This document shows, piece by piece, positions 4,427 through 52,892 of a DNA stretch of 64,000 nt; positions within the stretch are counted from its first letter, which is position 1, and the number at the start of each line of letters is the position of its first letter. The position numbers and the translations under genes were made by a program. The stretch lies in the NCBI GenBank assembly GCA_964574335.1, contig CAZNNH010000009.1:11634-75633 (forward strand). The letters run 5' to 3'. The DNA is from an uncultured Acidobacteriota bacterium. Lineage in GTDB: Bacteria; Acidobacteriota; Vicinamibacteria; Fen-336. A model generated the notes under the pieces. That model was not told the DNA's origin, did not search any database, and saw only the letters and a program-made list of their open reading frames with translations.

Positions 4427-5769
4427 GCCTCGCGCGCACGCTCGCGCTCCTGGTGGCGGCAGGCCTGGCTGCGGGCTACGTCGAGTCGTTGACCCGCGGC
4501 GATTCGGCGGCGCGTGTGCTGGAGCTGCGGCGCCTCCACGACGAGTTGCACGGCCGGCTCGAGGCCGGCGTGGGACGCGATCCCATCGCCGCGCGCGCGT
4601 TCGCCGATCCGGGCCAGATCGCCATCGCCGTGCGCGCGGGCCTGATCGAAGACCTGACCGCGCGGGTAGCGCGCCAGTACCTCCAGCAGGTGACCGTCGA
4701 CTTGACAGGGGTGGAGGCGCACGCAGAGGGAGATCTCCGCAAGGACACGTTGATCGGCCGCAAGAGAGTCGGTGAGTGGGCGGTGGCGGTCGTGATCAAG
4801 GAGCTGGTCGGCCGGCTCAGCGCCGGCCAGCCACGGCTGACCTTCGCCAGCAACGTGCTCGAGGTCGAGTTGCCCTTGGAAGTGCAGCCGGCCTCGGGCC
4901 AGATCGGCCTGCACTTCTCCTGGGACTCGGCCGCCGTCTTGAACCTGGTGTGCAAGGATTTCGAGGTGGACTTGGACGTCGACGGCCGCGCCCTGCGCCA
5001 ACAGCACGTCCTGCGCGGCCAGATCGAGCTGGCGGCCGACGACGACGCGCTCACCGCCACGCCGGTGATCCACGAGCGTTCCTTTCCCTTCAAGATCGAG
5101 CTGACGCCGGACTCGTGGGGCAAGGTCGAGACGGCTCTTCGCTCACAAGACTCGCTCGGACGTTGCGGGATGTTCCTCGATCCGGAGAACGTGCTGCGAA
5201 GCCTGCGCGAGCGCGTCGCCGAGGGCATCGAGATCCGATTGCCACGCTCGCTCTTCCAACCGGTGCGACTGCCGGCGCGCTTCGAACGAACGGTGAAGGT
5301 CGACGACAGCGTGGTGCATCTGTCACTGGCCGGCGAACGGCTGCGCTCCAGCGAGTCCATGCTGTGGTCGAGCACCAAGGTCAGCGTGGCCCTGGCGCAG
5401 GCGGCCGACAAGGCCTGGATCTCGATGAAGAGCGAGAGCGCGCTGATGACCACCGACGGCGCGGGCCGCAACGCCGTCGAGGTCGAGGTGGACCACGGAA
5501 AGGTCAGGCTCCACGGGACGGTCGACAGCCAGACGGTGAAGGACAAGGGCGAAGCCACCGCTCGCAGCGTCGGTGACGTGACGGACGTCCGGAACCTGCT
5601 GCAGGTCGTGAAGGAGTCCCGCCAGGAGTCGGTGAAGACCGCTGACATCCTCGCGTTCCTGACGGGGTACACCACCAGCCTGGCACACGAGCGTGGTGCC
5701 ATCGAGCCCGCCTACGACTCGGCCCTCTCCGCCACGGCCCGCAGCATGCCGGCGAAGATGCGGCGGTGA
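4423..5769 (+). CDS. Hypothetical secreted/membrane protein with C-terminal BON domain
   Basis: GTGA overlap with upstream gene; N-terminal hydrophobic segment LALLVAAGLAAGYV; C-terminal VEVEVDHGKVRLHGTVDSQTVKDKGEATARSVGDVTDVRNLLQV matches BON (OsmY-like) domain pattern. Confidence 0.5.
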   Translation: MSLARTLALLVAAGLAAGYVESLTRGDSAARVLELRRLHDELHGRLEAGVGRDPIAARAFADPGQIAIAVRAGLIEDLTARVARQYLQQVTVDLTGVEAHAEGDLRKDTLIGRKRVGEWAVAVVIKELVGRLSAGQPRLTFASNVLEVELPLEVQPASGQIGLHFSWDSAAVLNLVCKDFEVDLDVDGRALRQQHVLRGQIELAADDDALTATPVIHERSFPFKIELTPDSWGKVETALRSQDSLGRCGMFLDPENVLRSLRERVAEGIEIRLPRSLFQPVRLPARFERTVKVDDSVVHLSLAGERLRSSESMLWSSTKVSVALAQAADKAWISMKSESALMTTDGAGRNAVEVEVDHGKVRLHGTVDSQTVKDKGEATARSVGDVTDVRNLLQVVKESRQESVKTADILAFLTGYTTSLAHERGAIEPAYDSALSATARSMPAKMRR

Positions 5770-9716: not shown

Positions 9717-9816
9717 CCCGCGGCTGCCCGTTCGGCTGGCTCCGGGACGGGGAGGTCGAGGAGGCATATGCTCGCCCCCGGGCAGAAGGGGCTGGTCATC
9801 GGCGGTGGGAGCAGAG

Positions 9817-22353: not shown

Positions 22354-25300
22354 ATGAGGCAGCCGCGCCACCAGCCCGCTGATGCTCCGAGAGGGCCGCG
22401 CCGGGTGGCCCTCGGCCTCTGCCTGTTGCTCCTGCCTGGCAGCGGCCTGGCCCTGGAGACTCCCGAGCGGTCCCTCGACGAGACGGCGATCCGCCTCGAG
22501 CTGGGCGAGGAGCGCTCGTGGCTCATCCTGCCGGTGGTGAACGCGGGACCCACGACCGGGGCCCGGTTTCGGGTCGAGACCCTCACCCCTGAAGGCGACG
22601 TGGGCCTGAGCCTCGAGCGGGACCTCACCCTCGAGGCGGGCGAGCGTTCTCTCCGCGTGGAGCTGCCCGCCCGCCTCGGCCGGCCCCGGGGCACGCCCCA
22701 GAACGAGCTGCTGCTGGACCGGCTGCGCTTCGAGCTGAAGACGGACGACGGCTGGGTCGCCAGTGGTGTGCGTGGGCTGTCCGCCATCGTGGGGCTGTTC
22801 GAGCTGCGGGTCATCGCGCCCTACACGGCTCGGAGCGGCTCGCGGGTCACGGTGCACGTACTGGCGAGGCGTGTGGCGACGGGCGAGCCGCTCGAAGGCG
22901 TCGCGGTCGAGACGCGGCTCGCTGAAACGGACGAGGGCGACGTCGGGCGAGGGCGGACGGACGCCCGCGGTCGGGCGACCGTGTCGCTTCGGCTTCCCTC
23001 GGATCTCGAGGACGCCGAGCACGAGATCCGGGTGCAGGGACAGCTCGGCGGGATCGGGGCCGAGGCCGTGAGCGAGCTCTGGACGAGCTCCAACCTGAGG
23101 GCCCTGGTCACCACGGACAAGCCCCTCTACCAGCCCGGCCAGCCCCTGCGGGTGCGCCTGCTGGCCTTCCACCCGCGGGAGCGCGTGGCGGCGGGCCTTC
23201 CGGTGAGCTTCAGCCTGAGAGCGCCCGACGGAGAGGCCGTCCTGGAGCGGACGCTGACCACGTCGGGCAACGGCGTGGCCAGCCTGGAGTGGTCGATCCC
23301 CGAGCGGGCGGCGCTGGGCGACTACCACCTGGAGGTGCATGGCGAGGGGGGCCGGAACCTCGGGCCCGGCCGGACGGTACGCGTGAGCCGCTACGAGCTG
23401 CCCGTCCTTCGTCTCGATGCCCGCAGCGAGCGGCCGTTCTACCTGCCCCGGCAGCGAAGAGCGCGCGTGGTCGTGCGGGTCGAGACGCTGACCGGCGAGC
23501 CCGTCGAGGGGGCGCGCGTGACCGTGCGTGGAGGCGTCGCCGAGTCCGACGAGGACCAGGCCGAAGACGAGACGGATGCCAGGGGCAGGGCCGTGTTGAG
23601 CGTCGACCTGGCCGACGCCCACAGACAGCTCCGCGACGAGGACTGGCGGCAGTTCGCGGACCTGGGCTACGAGGCCCACGTCGTGGATCCCATCTCGGGG
23701 CGGTCGGAGGCGCGCCGCTTCGACATCCGCATCACCCGCCATCCCGTGCACGTCTACTGGCAGGAATCCAGCGGAGGGCTGCCTGTCGGCTTCGGTGTCG
23801 ACGGGTTCGTCGCCACCTACTCCGCCGACGGGACGCCGCTGGCCTGCGACGTCCGCTTCTCCGGGACCTTCAAGGTCCGGGTGCGCACCAACGAGCGGGG
23901 GCAGGCGCGGGTGCGCACCGAGCGCCCTCCGGGCGAGGACGCGCCCCGGGAGCTGCGCGTCGAGGCCCGCGACGACCAGGGACGCAAGGGCCGCCTCGAG
24001 GACCACGTCTACGTCAACACCGACCCGGTCGTGCGGCTTCGGGCGGCGGCCACCCTGCTCCGACCGGGCGACCCCGTGCGCATCCGGGTCCAGGCGGACC
24101 CTCCCGGGGAGGTGCTGCTCCACCTGCAGCGGGGGGACCAGCCGGTCGCGGCCCGCGAGGTGATGGCCGACGCCGAAGGGGTGTTCGTCGACTTCGCCTA
24201 CCAGGAGGGGTGGGCGGACGAGCTGTGCGTTGGAGCCATCCGATCGGACGGCGAGCGGTGGCAGGGGATCGACAGCCTGTGCGTCTTCTACCCGCGGGCG
24301 CGGGCGCCCGAGCTGAAGGTCGAGGCGCAGCCGGCACGGGCCCGACCGGGCGAGCGCGTGCGGGCGCGCTTGCAGCTCCGCGATAGGCGAGGCGCCCCCC
24401 GCGCCGGGGTCGTGGGTCTGGTCGGAGTGGACCAGGCGTTGCTCGATCGCGCGCGTTCACAGGAGGAGTTCGGCGACTTCTGGTACTCCCACGGGCTCTT
24501 CGAGGACGACCCCATCGGGGCCCTCGATCTCGACGCCCTGGACGCACAGCAACCCTGGGAGCCCAGCCTCGAGCTGGCCGCCGCATGGGGGCTGCGCGAC
24601 GGGGACTTCTACCTGAACCGGGCCACCAGCGAGGGCCCGGACCTCCAGCGCGCCTACCAGCCGGTGGTTCTAGTCGCGATGGCGCCGATTCAGGAGGCGC
24701 TGGACGACAGGCACTGGCCGGACCCGGGCTACCCGGTGCGCGTCGAGGCGCTGCTGGACGAGCTCGCGACCCACGGCTTCGAGGCGCGGGGGCTTCTCGA
24801 CCCATGGGGTCGGAGATACCGGTTTCGTCTGGCCCCCGGTCGGGAGCACATGCAGCTCGAGGCCGTCAGCGCGGGTCCGGACGAGCTGTTCCACAGCCCG
24901 GACGACCTCACCGTGACGGTCCGCTCGTGGCCCCTCTACGCCCGCCTGGCCAAGAAGCTGCGCCGGGCGCTGGAGCGCTACGTGGACACCCACGGCACCC
25001 TGCCGAGGAACGTCCGGGGCCTGCGGGACGTGCTGCGCCGCGAGGGCGTCGACCCCGGCTCGCTCGAGGACGCCCACGGCGAGCGGCTGCGGCTGGAGCT
25101 GAGGCGGGAGGGCCGGCACGGTGTCCTGGCGTGCGCGAGCGATCTGGCTCTCTTCGAGGTCAAGCTGGATCTCTACGCCGACGCCGAGCGGCGGGTGCGC
25201 GAGGCGCTGGCGGCGTTTTCTGCCGAGGCAGGGGGCCTGCCGCAGGACGAGGCCACGTTCTGGAAGGCGCTGTCCGACGCCGGCATCGAGACGCGGTCGA

Positions 25301-46349: not shown

Positions 46350-48149
46350 CGGAAAGGCGCGCTCCGCCTCGGGCGCGCGAGTGTAGAAGGACGCCTGTGC
46401 CTCCAGGCGGAAGCCGGCCTCGGGGAGGATCGGCGTCCGCATCTTGTCGATGTCCAGACGGGCCAGGAAGCGGTCCTCGCGTCCGTGCGGCTCTCCCAGC
46501 ACCGGGTTGCCGACCCGGACGTCGGCGTCGACGTGGCTGGTCTCGAAGCCGGCCCGGAGCTCGAAGTGGCGACCCGGCCCGATCCCGACGTCGACTCCGG
46601 CGCCGGTGCGCCGGGTCCGGTAGGTGGCTACCAGGGCGTCGTCGTGGAAGAGGTTCTGGGAGGTCTCATCGAAGAAGACACGGGGCGCCAGGAAGAAGCG
46701 TGGCCGCCCCACCGGGCGGTACAGCTCGGTGGCCACTCCCCGGCTCGACCCGGCCGCCAGGTCGACCCGCAGCTCGGATCCGACTCCGACCAGATCCGTC
46801 ACCGTGACCCGCGCGCCGAGATCGATGACCACGGCGCCCGGCTCGGTGGCGAGGTCCAGGGAGAAGTCGACGAAGGGCGGCGCGTGGGCCTTCTCCTGGA
46901 ACCGGACCAGCAGGCCCGGCCTTCCCCCGGCCTCGGTCGCCTCGTAGGTGGCGCTCTCGTAGCGCCCCGAGCCGATGATGCGGGTGAGCCTGTCCTCGAG
47001 GCGATCGGCGTCGAGGGGCACGGTCAGGGAGCGGGTCAGCGACGGGCCGAGGGCCTCGGCTTGCGGCGAGGGGATGCCCTCGACGCTCACGAAGACGGGC
47101 TCCTCGAGCGGCGCCGGGCGACGGGCGCGACGGGCGGCGAGGTGCTGCAGCCAGGCGGCCTGGTCGAGGCGCAGCGGCAGCAGTTGCTGGCTGGCCGCCG
47201 CCGCCGCCTGGTAGCCGCGCCGGATCAGCTCGGCCGCACGTCGGAAATCCAGGGAGTCGAAACCCTCGAGCTGCGGCTCGAGCACCAGGTCGGCGTCCTT
47301 CAGGGTGCGCCGGGTCGCCGAGTCCATCATCACCACCACCGAGCGGTTGACCAGGCCGGTCATCGAGAGGCTGGTGGGCTGGTGCAGGTTCTCGCCCACC
47401 GACACCGCCACCACCACGTCGGCGCCCATGGCGCGGGCCACGTCGGCCGGGACGTTCTTCAACACGCCGCCATCCACCAGCAGCCGACCCTGGTAGCGGG
47501 ACGGCGCGAACACACCTGGGATGGCCATGGTGGCGCGCAGCGCCTGGACCAGCGAGCCCTCGTGGAGCGCCAGCGCCTCGCCCCGCTCGATGTCCACGGC
47601 CACGCATCGGAAGGGGATGGGAAGGTCGTCGAACGACTCCCGGGCGGCATGGGGGAAGGCGATGCGGCTGAGGAGGAGACCGATCTGGTGGCCGGAGCTG
47701 AGGCCGCTGGGCAGCGAGAGGCCGCCGCGCAGCCCGAGCTCGACGTCCACCGGGTACTGGCGCCGGTCCTGCTTGCGGCGGAAGGTCCGCTGCGGGTACG
47801 GGACGTCGCTCTCGAAAAGCCTGTCCCAGTCGGCCTCCAGCAGCAGGTCACGGATCTCGGCCGCCGACATCCCGGTGGCGTAGCCGCCGCCGATCAGCCC
47901 GCCCAGGCTGGTGCCCGCCACGTAGTCCACGGGGATCCGGTTCTCTTCCAGCCAGAGCAGCACGCCGGCGTGAGCGATGGCGCGCGCGGCGCCCCCACCG
48001 AGGGCCAGGCCCACCCGTGGCCGCGACGCGGGATCGGCGAGCACGCGCTGCCCGCCCGGCAACAGGAAGACCGCCAGCGTGGCCGCGACGACGGCCAGCG
48101 CGGGTCGTCGCCTCGGCTCGCCCTGGCTCATGGGCGTCCACGTTAGCAC
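45924..48149 (-). CDS. Patatin-like phospholipase with C-terminal Omp85-type beta-barrel (PlpD-like, type Vd autotransporter)
   Basis: Signal peptide; GLALGGGAARAIAHAGVL (GxGxxG oxyanion), GTSLG (GxSxG nucleophile), catalytic DGG; C-terminal ~350 aa with alternating beta-strand pattern and FTLGGPFRLGAFAPDTFRG Omp85-like motif. Confidence 0.8.
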   Translation of the reverse strand: MLTWTPMSQGEPRRRPALAVVAATLAVFLLPGGQRVLADPASRPRVGLALGGGAARAIAHAGVLLWLEENRIPVDYVAGTSLGGLIGGGYATGMSAAEIRDLLLEADWDRLFESDVPYPQRTFRRKQDRRQYPVDVELGLRGGLSLPSGLSSGHQIGLLLSRIAFPHAARESFDDLPIPFRCVAVDIERGEALALHEGSLVQALRATMAIPGVFAPSRYQGRLLVDGGVLKNVPADVARAMGADVVVAVSVGENLHQPTSLSMTGLVNRSVVVMMDSATRRTLKDADLVLEPQLEGFDSLDFRRAAELIRRGYQAAAAASQQLLPLRLDQAAWLQHLAARRARRPAPLEEPVFVSVEGIPSPQAEALGPSLTRSLTVPLDADRLEDRLTRIIGSGRYESATYEATEAGGRPGLLVRFQEKAHAPPFVDFSLDLATEPGAVVIDLGARVTVTDLVGVGSELRVDLAAGSSRGVATELYRPVGRPRFFLAPRVFFDETSQNLFHDDALVATYRTRRTGAGVDVGIGPGRHFELRAGFETSHVDADVRVGNPVLGEPHGREDRFLARLDIDKMRTPILPEAGFRLEAQASFYTRAPEAERAFPLLAGTMVAATSVRRSDSLFATLRGGTALRESPPPIYRFTLGGPFRLGAFAPDTFRGRHFVYAHLGYLLSVGRLPDLLGGPVRLAAQVELGSAFDHASAARLEGCLTTGVALDTFLGPIFAGASLGNRGAFGVYVSVGRLLR

Positions 48150-49585: not shown

Positions 49586-50308
49586 CTAGAAGCGCAGGCT
49601 GACGCCGCCGGACAGCTCGATCTGGTTCGAGTACTCGCCGCTGCCCGCCAGGTAGCAGCCCCACTGGGCGCCCGCGAACTCCCTGGCCTCGGGCTGGCAC
49701 CACCAGCCCGTCCCGCGGGTGTTGGCGGTCCCGCCCCGGATGGAGGAGGAGTACCAGATGTAGGTGGGGGTCCAGCGGGCGCCGAGGTTCAGGCCGAGCG
49801 TGCGGTTGGGGTAGAGCTTGACCCCCAGCCCCCAGGTGGTCGAGAACTTGGTCTGGCTGTTGATCTGCCGCGTGCCCCCAGTGTCGGCGTAGTCGAAGTC
49901 GCCGTAGCTGGTGGCGCCGGCGCCGGCCAGCAGGTAGGGGCGGACCGTGGAGTTGTGGTCTCCCAGATTGAAGGCGACATAGAAGTGATAGTTGTTGACG
50001 GGCAGGTCGTCGATCTCGACGGTCCGCGTGCCACTGACCTCGATCTTCGACTGCTGGCGGGCCCACAGCAGCCCGAGCTCGATCTTCGGCGTGGCGAAGA
50101 AGCCGACCTGGGCGCCGAAAGAGAGAGAGTCCTGGAGGCTGACCCGGTCGTAGACGTTGCCGTCGTCGGCCGCGACCCGTCCGCCGCCCACACCGTCCGA
50201 GAGCGTCCACCCGAGCCGCCCGCTGAACTCGACGATGGGATCCTGGGCCCACGCCGAAGACCCGACCAACACGCCCAGCCCGACCATCACCGCCAGCTTT
50301 GCCTTCAC
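49586..50308 (-). CDS. Outer-membrane beta-barrel protein (OmpA/OmpW-like porin family)
   Basis: Signal peptide MKAKLAVMVGLGVLVGSSAWA, alternating amphipathic strands rich in G/Y/T, C-terminal ...SGGVSLRF with terminal Phe. Confidence 0.6.
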   Translation of the reverse strand: MKAKLAVMVGLGVLVGSSAWAQDPIVEFSGRLGWTLSDGVGGGRVAADDGNVYDRVSLQDSLSFGAQVGFFATPKIELGLLWARQQSKIEVSGTRTVEIDDLPVNNYHFYVAFNLGDHNSTVRPYLLAGAGATSYGDFDYADTGGTRQINSQTKFSTTWGLGVKLYPNRTLGLNLGARWTPTYIWYSSSIRGGTANTRGTGWWCQPEAREFAGAQWGCYLAGSGEYSNQIELSGGVSLRF

Positions 50309-50457
50309 GTCATGCCTCCCGGAGCCGGGGCCCCCAATTGCGCGCCCGGCCGCCGTCCTTGGCGGCCCGCTCCTGCGGTGGGGCGCCTCGGACCTGGTGT
50401 TGCCGGGGCCTACTGTACCTCAGCCGGCGACCCCGCGACACCGGACCGCTCGGCCCT

Positions 50458-51364
50458 TCAAATGCCCTTGTAGACCAGCACCGGTCGGAGCCGCCGGACG
50501 ACGCGGGCGAGGTCGCTCTGCGCCCGCAGCACACACCTCAGGTCCTTGTAGGCGGACGGCGCCTCCTCGCGCAATGCCCGTGCCAGGCGATGGTCGAAGA
50601 AGATGCCCCGCGACTCGCGCGCCAACCTGGCCACGGAGATCTCGCGTCGGGCGGCCGAGCGCGAGAGTTGCCGGCCCGCGCCGTGGGCGCAGGATCCCAG
50701 CGATGCCGGGTTCCCCAGACCGACGACGTGGACGCTGAACGTGCCCATCGAGCCCGGCACCAGCCCGATCACACCGGCTCCCGCCGGGATCGCCCCTTTG
50801 CGGTGGACCCACAGCGTTTCGCTGCCGTGGGTCTCGCGACGCACGTGGTTGTGGTGGCAGCTCTCGAAGGTGTCCCAGAGCGGAGTCGCCTCTGCCACGT
50901 GGCCGAGCACCTCGGCGACCGCCTCCACCATCCGCCGGCGGCTCGCGTCGGCGTAGGCGAGGGCCCAGTCGACATCAGCCAGGTAGGATCGGCCGAGATC
51001 GCTCTCGGCCTCCAGGAAGCGCAGGCCGTGCCTCCCCACGCGGCAGCGACGCAGGTGGTGGGCCCGAATCGCCGGGCCGAGCCCACGGGAGCCGCTGTGC
51101 AGCATCAGCCAGAGCCGCCGCCGCGGCCGCCGCTTGGACGTCGAAGGCGATGGCCGCCATGCCGCAGCCGATATCGCCTCCCACCGCGCTGGGATAGAGC
51201 GTTCCGGATGTCGCGAGGACCGCGCCGACGCACACGTCCTCCGCCAGGTGGGCGTCCGGCATCAGCGCCACGTGACGCACGTTCTCGCTCTGTGCGAGCC
51301 GTTGGGCTGAGGCTCGGACTCCTTGCGGCAACGGCCCGTCGTGCCAGACGCGAAGGTCACCCAC
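50458..51364 (-). pseudogene. rtcB: RNA-splicing ligase RtcB: internally deleted (~110 aa missing between GCGM and HSGSRG) and frameshifted
   Basis: N-fragment (GTG 51364, AGGAGA RBS 6 nt upstream) encodes VALMPDAHLAEDVCVGAVLATSG...VGGDIGCGM. After a frame change at ~51105 the C-fragment encodes MLHSGSRGLG...CHHNHV...GSMGT...SCAHGAGR...VYKGI. The segment containing the conserved GNHF metal-ligand region is absent. Confidence 0.6.
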
Positions 51365-51719
51365 GATCCATCTCCTGCTCGGGCACGACTCGAAACGCCA
51401 GGTCCGGCGCGCGCTTGCGGTGGACGGCCCGGGCGACCTCGGCGCGCAGCCACGGCTTCTTCTCGCCAAGGGCAACGAAGGCGGCCTCGATACCTGCGAT
51501 GCCCGCGCCGCTTGGCAGCACGAGGCTCACCAGCAAGCGCCGCCCTGGTGCCGGATCCACGGACGCCACCCAGGCACCGTCGAGACGCGGGTCCGACGTC
51601 TCTTGGGCCAGGGCCAGGACCAGCGCCTCCTGGGCCTGGCGGCAAAGCGCACGGTCACGATGTCGTGGCCGCGGCGACTCCAGGCCGAAGAACAGGCCCG
51701 CCGAGTCGACGTCCTGGCA
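51357..51719 (-). CDS. RbfA-like (ribosome-binding factor A fold) small protein, translationally coupled to rtcB remnant
   Basis: GTG 51719; GLESPRPRHRDRALCRQAQEALVLALAQETSDPRLDGAWVASVDPAPGRRLLVSLVLP...LRAEVARAVHRKRAPDLAFRVVPE parallels the RbfA pattern (GRPQRVAQEMQKEIALIL..IKDPRL...V.VS.D....KVYV...LR.ELAK.L.LR.VPEL.F). Stop overlaps rtcB start. Confidence 0.35.
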   Translation of the reverse strand, partial: CQDVDSAGLFFGLESPRPRHRDRALCRQAQEALVLALAQETSDPRLDGAWVASVDPAPGRRLLVSLVLPSGAGIAGIEAAFVALGEKKPWLRAEVARAVHRKRAPDLAFRVVPEQEMDRG

Positions 51720-52082
51720 CACGTCGTCCGAGTCCGGAGACCTCGGCCTCCGCCGTCTTTTGAAAGTCACAAGACCTCGTGGACGCCACGGGGCGCACGA
51801 ACGCGCCACGGACGCCGAGCTATGGGTTCGTAGTCAGGAGCCTGGCCCGGACTCGGGCCGGAGGAGTGCGACTACCGGCCGAGACGAGCGAGGCCCGATT
51901 CGGTCGCGCTGCAGTACGCAAGCATCCGGGGCCTCCTTTCCTGCACGCGCGGCATTGGCGCGCGGATCGCCACGATACGGCCCGGCGCGCTCCGGTGTCA
52001 AGAGATTTCTAGCCGTGGGTCACCGGACCGGCGATAAACCCTGGCCTCCCCCCGAGCGTCTCAGCTTCGACAGGAGGAGCGC

Positions 52083-52892
52083 ATGAGACAGCTTCTGGCC
52101 CTGGTAGTGCCCCTGGCCCTGCTGGCCGGGACGGCCGACGCCCAGCCCCTTTTCCGGACGATCGAGAACGACCCGTGGTGCCGCGAGGTGGGCCGCAACT
52201 CCCACCAAGAGACGTGGTGTGAGGTCCGGGAGGCGACGCTGCCGGCCACGGAGGGCCGGATCGAGGTGGACGCCAGCCCGAACGGCGGTGCCAAGGCGGA
52301 GGGCGCGGACCGCAGCGACATCCGGCTGCGTGTGATGGTCGTGGCCCGGGCCGACACCGAGACCGAGGCGCGTGAGCTGGCCTCGGAGGTCGAGGTGGTG
52401 ACCCGTCCCACGATCCGCACCGAGGGGCCCAGGACGCACCCGCGTGGCGCTCACTGGTGGGCCTCGTTCGAGGTCACGGTCCCTCGCCGTTCCAGCCTGA
52501 GGCTGACCTCGGTGAACGGGCCCGTCGCGGTCACCGGTGTCGACGGTCAGGTCGAGCTTGAGACCGAGAACGGTCCGGTCACCGTGTCCGGGTCGGGTGG
52601 CCACGTGAGGGGCCGGACCGAGAACGGCCCGGTGACCGCAGAGCTGACCGGCACCGCCTGGAAGGGTGAGGGCCTCGACCTCGAGACGGTCAACGGCCCG
52701 GCCGTGATCCGGATCCCCAGCGACTACAACGCCCGGCTGGAGACCGGCACCGTCAACGGTCCCCTCGACCTGTCGTTTCCGCTGACGGGCCAGCTCAGGT
52801 CCAAGGGCGACATCGAGGCGACGCTGGGCGACGGCGGCACCCTGCTGAGGGTGCGGACGACCAACGGTCCGGTTCGCGTGGGGCGGCCGTAG
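52083..52892 (+). CDS. Secreted DUF4097-like putative adhesin (beta-helix with repeated NGPV strands)
   Basis: Signal peptide MRQLLALVVPLALLAGTADA; six repeats of (V/E)NGP(V/L) every ~20 aa typical of DUF4097/YvlB-like proteins. Confidence 0.55.
   Translation: MRQLLALVVPLALLAGTADAQPLFRTIENDPWCREVGRNSHQETWCEVREATLPATEGRIEVDASPNGGAKAEGADRSDIRLRVMVVARADTETEARELASEVEVVTRPTIRTEGPRTHPRGAHWWASFEVTVPRRSSLRLTSVNGPVAVTGVDGQVELETENGPVTVSGSGGHVRGRTENGPVTAELTGTAWKGEGLDLETVNGPAVIRIPSDYNARLETGTVNGPLDLSFPLTGQLRSKGDIEATLGDGGTLLRVRTTNGPVRVGRP

Follow-up and report, generated by a model that had tools for sequence, protein, structure and literature searches.

What has become of the rtcB gene at this locus, and to what kind of operon did it belong? 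The locus lies in a stretch of 64,000 nucleotides from an uncultured Acidobacteriota bacterium of the class Vicinamibacteria (assembly GCA_964574335.1, contig CAZNNH010000009.1, positions 11,634 to 75,633), referred to here as the window, in which the remains of a gene for the RNA ligase RtcB follow a small gene whose product resembles RbfA. The original prediction described rtcB as a pseudogene, disrupted by a deletion plus a frameshift, and considered its pairing with an RbfA-like gene unusual. The best overall explanation, considered probable, is that rtcB is a pseudogene created by a 218-bp deletion within an otherwise conserved module of promoter, leader, RbfA paralogue and RtcB, with the working proposed for that module below. 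The RbfA-like gene, the leader and the remains of rtcB are all on the minus strand, and the module spans positions 52001-50458. The two genes are laid out as follows.

51357-51770, minus strand: RbfA-like gene, 137 amino acids (aa), intact; start codon GTG at 51770, Shine-Dalgarno (SD) sequence GAGG at 51778-51775, stop codon TGA at 51359-51357.
51117-51364, minus strand: 5' fragment of rtcB; start codon GTG at 51364; about 80 of the encoded residues are genuine RtcB sequence, with MPDAH and GDIGCGM among them.
51116-51126, minus strand: deletion junction zone, a GCG/GCC-rich tract within which the breakpoint is ambiguous.
50458-51114, minus strand: 3' fragment of rtcB, 218 codons in another frame, ending in VYKGI and a stop codon at 50460-50458.

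Both halves of RtcB are present in different frames, as had been claimed. The N-terminal fragment, which translates as VGDLRVWHDG...MPDAHLAEDV...GGDIGCGMAAIAFDVQAAAA, covers positions 8-76 of the 426 positions of the Pfam RtcB model (PF01139; E 1.1e-12, 48.4 bits), and the C-terminal fragment, a separate open reading frame (ORF), covers positions 180-426 (E 1.1e-56, 193.3 bits); both are above the gathering cut-off of 27 bits. With this placement of the two pieces on RtcB the earlier observation is correct far beyond chance. The frame that starts at GTG 51364 reads, in order, VGDLRVWHDGPLPQGV...VALMPDAHLAEDV...GGDIGCGMAAIAFDVQAAAAAAA and then continues in unrelated sequence to a stop codon at 50977-50975, giving a predicted product of 129 aa. 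The frame from 51114 opens LWLMLHSGSRG and reads LWLMLHSGSRGLG...SCHHNHV...PGSMG...SCAHGAGR...PVLVYKGI; its product is 82% identical to the intact RtcB of locus L009 and 94% identical to P0188, the best database match. About 100 positions of the Pfam profile are absent between the fragments, the GxGNHF motif among them. The active-site motifs GDIGCGM, LHSGSRG, CHHN and HGAGR are kept in the window and GxGNHF is deleted; intact relatives have all five. GxGNHF supplies a metal-ligand histidine in the solved RtcB structures of Pyrococcus horikoshii and Escherichia coli.

The size of the loss was determined by comparison with relatives from public metagenomes, the intact reference being L007, whose RbfA-like protein is 92% identical to that of the window. 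In L007 the rtcB frame is continuous across the junction (...GDIGCGMAAVAFDVEAAAVAESRTAAQILNALRASVPFGRYRRVTVPSLPDGLRDRCLSSPELEALRRRDAAMQLGTIGSGNHFIELQADEKGRLWLMLHSGSRG...). The anchors GGCGATATCGGCTGCGGCATGGC (GDIGCGM) and ATGCTGCACAGCGG (MLHSG) are 291 nt apart in L007 but 73 nt apart in the window. The window is therefore short of a net 218 nt (72 codons and 2 nt), so that one event explains both the missing GSGNHF segment and the frameshift. The pseudogene call therefore stands, since about 73 codons including the Asn-His metal-ligand motif GSGNHF are gone and the frame is shifted, whereas the two separate lesions originally supposed reduce to one. A split-alignment scan against L007 places the breakpoint anywhere in the GCG/GCC tract at 51126-51116, and rtcB appears to have lost its 218 bp in a single event inside this GC-rich tract of alanine codons. 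Aligned to E. coli RtcB, the lost segment (residues ~84-156 of the L009 protein) corresponds to residues ~93-179 and includes the E. coli GTGNHF; the GNHF region is thus missing as predicted, but the loss amounts to ~73 residues in this compact subfamily and not to the ~110 first estimated. L020, with an RbfA-like protein 91% identical to that of the window, is likewise continuous across the rtcB junction, and P0188, with a 94% identical RtcB, contains the full middle segment. An exact search of the JGI metagenome contigs with the 49-nt deletion junction gave no match, so the deletion allele is unseen in that collection. Judged by the intact close relatives L007, L020 and P0188, the deletion appears to be specific to the genome or assembly represented by the window. 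An intein or the footprint of an insertion sequence (IS) was considered as the cause and rejected, since relatives at 92-94% identity have no insertion there.

The two genes are tightly joined. The rtcB start codon at 51364 overlaps the end of the RbfA-like gene by 8 nt (string GTGGGTGA) and is preceded, at a distance of 6 nt, by the ribosome-binding site AGGAGA at 51376-51371; the positions and the overlap are as originally described. For the upstream gene, the 137-aa reading from GTG 51770 is preferred to an alternative 121-aa form from GTG 51722 because the N-terminus is kept in homologues and L009 has an ATG at the same position. An exact-sequence look-up of the 137-aa protein returned no record; homologues at 88-92% identity are present in public metagenomes.

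The assignment of this protein to RbfA, as had been suggested, is supported alike by Pfam, by profile comparison and by AlphaFold with Foldseek. The window protein itself scores below the family cut-offs, with 19.9 bits (E 1e-3; cut-off 34.7) against Pfam RBFA (PF02033) and 18 bits (cut-off 142) against NCBIfam RbfA (TIGR00082). When a profile of 37 family members was used, the top four PDB sequence hits were all RbfA, from E. coli (two entries), Haemophilus influenzae and Thermus thermophilus, with the whole domain aligned. The AlphaFold model computed from the family alignment has a mean predicted local distance difference test (pLDDT) value of 76.7, rising to ~90 over residues 34-130, and consists of a helix (34-56), two strands (67-74 and 78-85), a helix (91-115) and a strand (123-130). 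This predicted helix-strand-strand-helix-strand arrangement was classed as the type II KH fold (alpha-beta-beta-alpha-alpha-beta), and it follows about 33-35 N-terminal residues that are basic and disordered. The top 12 Foldseek hits in the PDB are all bacterial or mitochondrial RbfA (TM-score 0.61-0.80; best root-mean-square deviation 2.0-2.4 Å). Among representatives of the family, 101 of 103 hit Pfam RBFA at E<=0.01 (best 9.8e-12) and 87 of 103 match an NCBIfam RbfA model. A profile search of 1.84 billion representative proteins returned 1,412 clusters (50% identity) at E<=1e-10, a number that grows to no more than 2,086 when the threshold is relaxed to E<=1e-3; this argues for a discrete family and not the bulk of canonical RbfA. 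By its sequence and predicted structure, the small upstream protein appears to be a divergent RbfA paralogue.

With canonical RbfA the window family shares the predicted fold (TM-score up to 0.80 to the E. coli, H. influenzae and Staphylococcus aureus proteins) and the DPRL-like and R-x-x-P-E-L-x-F motifs, the latter retained in the family in the basic form R-K-R-x-P-E-L-x-F. It differs in the additional ~35 basic N-terminal residues, in an invariant L-C-R-Q, in the AxG motif, which is K-x-P in the clade of the window, and in gene context, as the window gene adjoins rtcB and does not stand in a nusA-infB-rbfA-truB-type cluster. The cysteine of L-C-R-Q in helix 1 (window residues 42-45) is invariant in 103 of 103 representatives of a family otherwise only ~25% identical per column. 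No relative of the RbfA-like protein was found in the plasmid collection or the viral contigs searched, and neither it nor RtcB matched a PADLOC defence model.

At almost every fetched locus with enough downstream DNA, the RbfA-like gene is directly followed by a gene for an RtcB of 374-380 aa (L001-4, L005, L009-12, L014, L016-19, L021, L023-26, L028-31, L033-35, L037-39, L042 and L044-48). This list, which also counts two places reported without DNA, represents about 30 distinct loci from several phyla. The genes usually overlap by 4-8 nt or else are separated by a short gap, and the RbfA-like proteins are only 30-90% identical to that of the window. Named records with the pair are two metagenome-assembled genomes (MAGs) labelled 'uncultured proteobacterium', one Tepidisphaeraceae and one Phycisphaerales, and one RtcB relative is labelled Vicinamibacteria, a class of Acidobacteriota. 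The flanking genes vary between loci, so the conserved unit consists of the leader and the two genes, and from these comparisons the RbfA-like gene and rtcB appear to form a widespread two-gene unit with a conserved leader. The pairing is unusual relative to the literature only; within this large family of loci it is the rule. A full-text search, outside of which lies the survey of RtcB neighbourhoods by Burroughs and Aravind (2016, Nucleic Acids Research), found no published description of it, and a survey of release-factor and RtcB neighbourhoods does not mention RbfA. RtcB with a divergent RbfA as a two-gene unit has apparently not yet been described. At L001:5943-7418, and also in L002-L004, the last 4 nt of rtcB are shared with a gene for a 491-aa PcfJ-like protein (PF14284), which suggests a lineage-specific third operon gene in this sublineage.

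Conservation also extends upstream of the two genes, beyond the segment to which the original prediction was confined. The elements found there in the window are the following.

51972-52001, minus strand: sigma-70-type promoter, with the -35 element TTGACA at 52001-51996, an 18-nt spacer and the -10 element TATCGT at 51977-51972.
51771-51965, minus strand: leader of ~195 nt, from the predicted transcription start to the start codon of the RbfA-like gene.
51872-51925, minus strand: upstream ORF (uORF) of 17 codons, MLAYCSATESGLARLGR and a stop codon, with the SD sequence GGAAAGGAGG at 51941-51932.
51837-51896, minus strand: long leader hairpin, with the 5' arm GGGCCUCGCUCG at 51896-51885 and the 3' arm CCGGGCCAGGCUCC at 51850-51837.
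51792-51807, minus strand: small hairpin GGCGCG-UUCG-UGCGCC, just 5' of the SD sequence of the RbfA-like gene.

Promoter, leader and uORF are also seen upstream in L001 and L005-L049. In alignments of the relatives the ~310 nt 5' of the RbfA-like gene are unusually conserved, the leader being far above ordinary intergenic DNA. The promoter is the only promoter-like site in 50300-52150 (0.0 expected from shuffles); its TTGACA is invariant among the relatives and its -10 element is conserved. A uORF preceded by an SD sequence and 10-20 codons long (mostly 16-17) occurs in ~34 of the 35 loci with enough upstream DNA, located ~115-230 nt (mostly 140-185) 5' of the RbfA-like start codon, and is present even where the proteins are only ~35% identical to those of the window. 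Its length and position are conserved and its peptide only in part (...SGLARLGR, MFLIALCPMRSSPPAL, MRLIAIHPTPVSPSAGL and MRTIAHHVFQLSLLAA are variants), and substitutions that alter amino acids occur even where conservation is highest; the constraint therefore seems to bear mainly on the RNA and on the process of translating it. In the RNAalifold consensus the last uORF codons, GGGCCUCGCCCG, pair with the downstream 3' arm of the long hairpin, so that the uORF stop codon is in the apical part, and an alternative hairpin, GGCCCG/CGGGCC, uses the same 3' arm. Compensatory changes in the small hairpin, also from RNAalifold, exchange GC and CG in 5 sequences and CG and UA in 6. A covariance model of the hairpin core recovers its counterpart in the corresponding place in the distant L014 group; in the alignment fitted to this model, which contains two probable false hits, 95% of cells pair (22-60% in slid controls) and 8 pairs have changed at both positions, a result that none of 500 shuffles reached.

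There was no Rfam match in the whole window at the gathering threshold or in the leader at E<=1, and no intrinsic terminator was found in the leader region. Weak matches to the leader covariance model at 22821-22902 (minus strand), 9770-9812 (minus strand) and 46745-46783 (plus strand), with E values of 0.15-0.47, are most likely chance hits in GC-rich sequence. The leader motif GGCUC...AACG was considered as a mimic of the 16S 5' end (UGGCUCAG...AACGCU) and rejected, as its spacing varies between groups. In the erm and cat leaders, too, a short uORF with its own SD sequence stands before the regulated gene and overlaps an arm of a conserved hairpin, and an alternative hairpin is possible; in contrast to these, the window leader lacks an intrinsic terminator and a recognized stalling peptide motif.

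What might the intact module do? RtcB2 with its partner PrfH repairs 16S rRNA cut at A1493/G1494 in the decoding centre, and does so only on free 30S subunits, to which PrfH supplies access (Tian et al. 2022, PMC9304027). In E. coli, RtcB religates the 16S 3' end that MazF removes (PMC5416887). The KH domain of RbfA captures 16S nucleotides G1530-A1536 and wedges the h44/h45 linker off h28 (PMC8177701), and the linker region so wedged adjoins both the RtcB2 and the MazF cleavage sites. By analogy, the intact module is tentatively proposed, at somewhat less than even chance, to serve in 30S/16S rRNA repair in parallel to RtcB2-PrfH, with its uORF leader tied to translation. The RbfA-like protein would dock on the free 30S subunit near the RbfA site (16S 3' end, h28 and h44/h45 linker) and hold or expose the 16S 3' minor domain cleaved by a ribotoxin, RtcB would reseal the cut, and the uORF leader would couple expression of the module to the translation state. 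As the ligase half is dead in the window, whatever the module did is lost there.

The parallel with the RtcB2-PrfH system of E. coli ATCC 25922 is one of organization. Both are tightly coupled two-gene operons in which an RtcB-family ligase is accompanied by a protein paralogous to a core translation factor, one with a binding site on the small subunit close to the decoding region. In both, too, internal deletions have broken the operon in certain genomes, namely in E. coli K-12 for RtcB2-PrfH (PMC9304027) and in the window for the present module. They differ in that the partner in the window is an upstream KH-fold RbfA paralogue and not a release-factor homologue, and in that the window module has a conserved uORF leader and is known here from sequence alone. 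No gene resembling the release factor prfH was called beside rtcB; its neighbour at all loci is the RbfA-like gene. The RtcB-RtcA-RtcR operon of E. coli and Salmonella involves the same ligase family, with the same predicted active-site motifs in the intact relatives, but the window module is without the RtcA cyclase and the sigma-54/CARF regulator RtcR, and its regulation is apparently through the sigma-70-type promoter and the uORF leader.

A more far-reaching version of the same idea, for which the chances are rather poor, is that RbfA-like/RtcB constitutes a second widespread ribosome-repair system. The RbfA paralogue would bind the damaged 30S subunit, keep the cleaved 16S 3' fragment in place and open the h44/h45-linker and decoding region, so that RtcB could reseal cuts such as those made by colicin E3, CdiA-CT or MazF; a drop in translation capacity would be sensed by the uORF leader, which would turn the operon on, and the RbfA-like protein may bind a conserved anti-SD-like GGCUCC motif in the leader, providing autoregulation.

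Several observations weigh against the proposed functional model. The intact partner RtcBs are 38% identical to E. coli RtcB1 over the full length, reach none of the curated NCBIfam subfamily cut-offs and are not RtcB2: the scores against TIGR03073 (release_rtcB; cut-off 271.8) are 134.7-151.4 bits for the intact relatives and 143.4 for E. coli RtcB1. A kinship of the partner RtcB to RtcB2 was accordingly rejected, since E. coli RtcB1 has the same sub-threshold NCBIfam scores. In the RbfA-like family the column equivalent to Phe78 of E. coli RbfA, the residue that contacts the 16S 3' end, is variable (R in 29, L in 17, W in 15 and F in 11 of the 103 representatives), and the AxG motif is only partly kept, its G position being occupied by G in 56 of 103 and by P in 37 of 103, with K-K-P-W in the window. 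The RbfA-like gene persists without a working RtcB both in the window and in L013, and may for this reason have a separate role. When ribosome footprints were imposed as constraints on ViennaRNA folding, SD accessibility showed no consistent shift, and duplexes of the uORF 3' end with the GGCUCC motif (z of -1 to -2.6 against shuffles) are only modestly better in energy than shuffled sequences because everything there is GC-rich. The functional model as a whole is built on gene adjacency and analogy.

The unconserved RbfA contact residue, the lack of any special closeness of the partner to RtcB2 and the survival of the RbfA-like gene without RtcB also speak for the strongest rival, which accepts both deletion and module but gives the RbfA-like protein no directing part in rRNA repair. 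The protein could then act on tRNA or mRNA fragments in the manner of archease, as a general KH-type chaperone of RNA or an activator of RtcB, or it could be a stress-specific 30S assembly factor simply co-expressed with a general-purpose ligase. The tight translational coupling kept across phyla argues against this, as do the retention of the RbfA fold with the basic R-K-R-x-P-E-L-x-F motif and the existence of ribosome-directed RtcB systems (PMC9304027, PMC5416887), and this alternative, though a serious one, is considered unlikely.

RtcB2-PrfH is the only dedicated ribosome-repair operon characterized, and most bacterial RtcB clusters are without a known substrate (PMC9304027). So many RbfA paralogues coupled in translation to RtcB point to a concrete candidate, the 30S subunit and its 16S 3' minor domain, and suggest that a ligase may be brought to the ribosome in a novel manner, by an assembly-factor paralogue instead of a release-factor paralogue. 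The uORF leader gives a starting point for asking how damage to ribosomes might be sensed by the cell.

A further question is whether the gap in rtcB exists in the organism at all. Ratios of nonsynonymous to synonymous substitution (dN/dS, Nei-Gojobori) are 0.06-0.10 for the N-terminal fragment of the window against L007, L009 and L001, and 0.17-0.27 for the C-terminal fragment against L009 and L001; between the intact genes of L009 and L001 the same regions give 0.06 and 0.17. The fragments thus show no visible relaxation of constraint, and they contain no further frameshift and no stop codon. With ratios as low as those of intact orthologues, either the inactivation is recent or the gap is an artefact. 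For the RbfA-like gene the ratio between the window and its relatives is 0.25-0.36 (0.25 against L007), which is consistent with purifying selection on a gene that, with its leader, is intact in the window.

An rtcB that is intact in the organism, with the 218-bp gap an error of assembly or sequencing or a minority variant, would weigh against the deletion itself. This would equally account for the lack of additional decay in the fragments and for the intactness of close relatives across the junction, and it would suit a junction within a low-complexity GCG/GCC tract and the presence of a 1-nt rtcB frameshift in L016, a related MAG locus. However, only a few nucleotides of microhomology are present at the breakpoint, not enough for an assembly graph to collapse there, and a clean loss of 218 nt is atypical of read errors. 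The module also decays naturally elsewhere, L013 being without rtcB and the rtcB of L027 interrupted, and E. coli K-12 has a deletion in rtcB2-prfH (PMC9304027). On account of the short microhomology and the natural decay at other loci, an artefact is rated improbable.

It is far less credible still that rtcB remains functional, as a shortened or two-piece RtcB or as a single chain made by programmed frameshifting at the junction: both fragments are open and conserved, ATG 51105 opens a 215-aa C-terminal ORF, and 215-aa gene calls beginning MLHSGSRG are public (P0222, P0224), but the GxGNHF segment is physically absent, ATG 51105 has no preceding SD sequence, the junction has no evident slippery site and the close relatives all encode one 374-aa chain. 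A genuine pseudogene thus remains the preferred explanation, and the broken copy in the window is in itself ordinary gene decay. Like the deletion that E. coli K-12 carries in its rtcB2-prfH operon (PMC9304027), it indicates that such modules are dispensable and sporadically lost, as expected of conflict-related systems.

The window has a G+C content of 70.6%, and a MacB/FtsX permease is among the neighbouring genes; both agree with the Vicinamibacteria label of the one RtcB relative. A divergent neighbour at 52083-52892 (plus strand) encodes a protein of 269 aa with an apparent signal peptide and repeated NGPV motifs, for which no Pfam match was found at E<=1e-3.

Other copies of the module are also incomplete. 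At L013:5971-7100 the leader, the uORF and the RbfA-like gene are kept and rtcB is absent; an unrelated cytochrome-c-like ORF follows, and the orphan RbfA-like gene encodes an altered C-terminus. At L027:2860-3249 rtcB is normal as far as GGDIGCG and is then replaced by unrelated, AT-richer sequence up to the contig end, which could be due to an insertion element or to a chimeric contig end. In L016 (positions 4916-4924; a MAG labelled 'uncultured proteobacterium') comparison with the nearly identical L014 reveals one additional base in rtcB (GGCTGCCGGG, against GGCGCCGGG in L014), by which the gene is split into two frames; the extra base could be a sequencing error or real decay. RtcB calls from this subfamily in which the N-terminal part is missing are P0222, P0224 (215 aa), P0233 (285 aa) and P0250 (265 aa), of which P0222 is on a contig of 942 nt and the other three are on contigs of 7-234 kb. 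Like the C-terminal ORF of the window, P0222 and P0224 begin with MLHSGSRG, and all four may be further disrupted copies.

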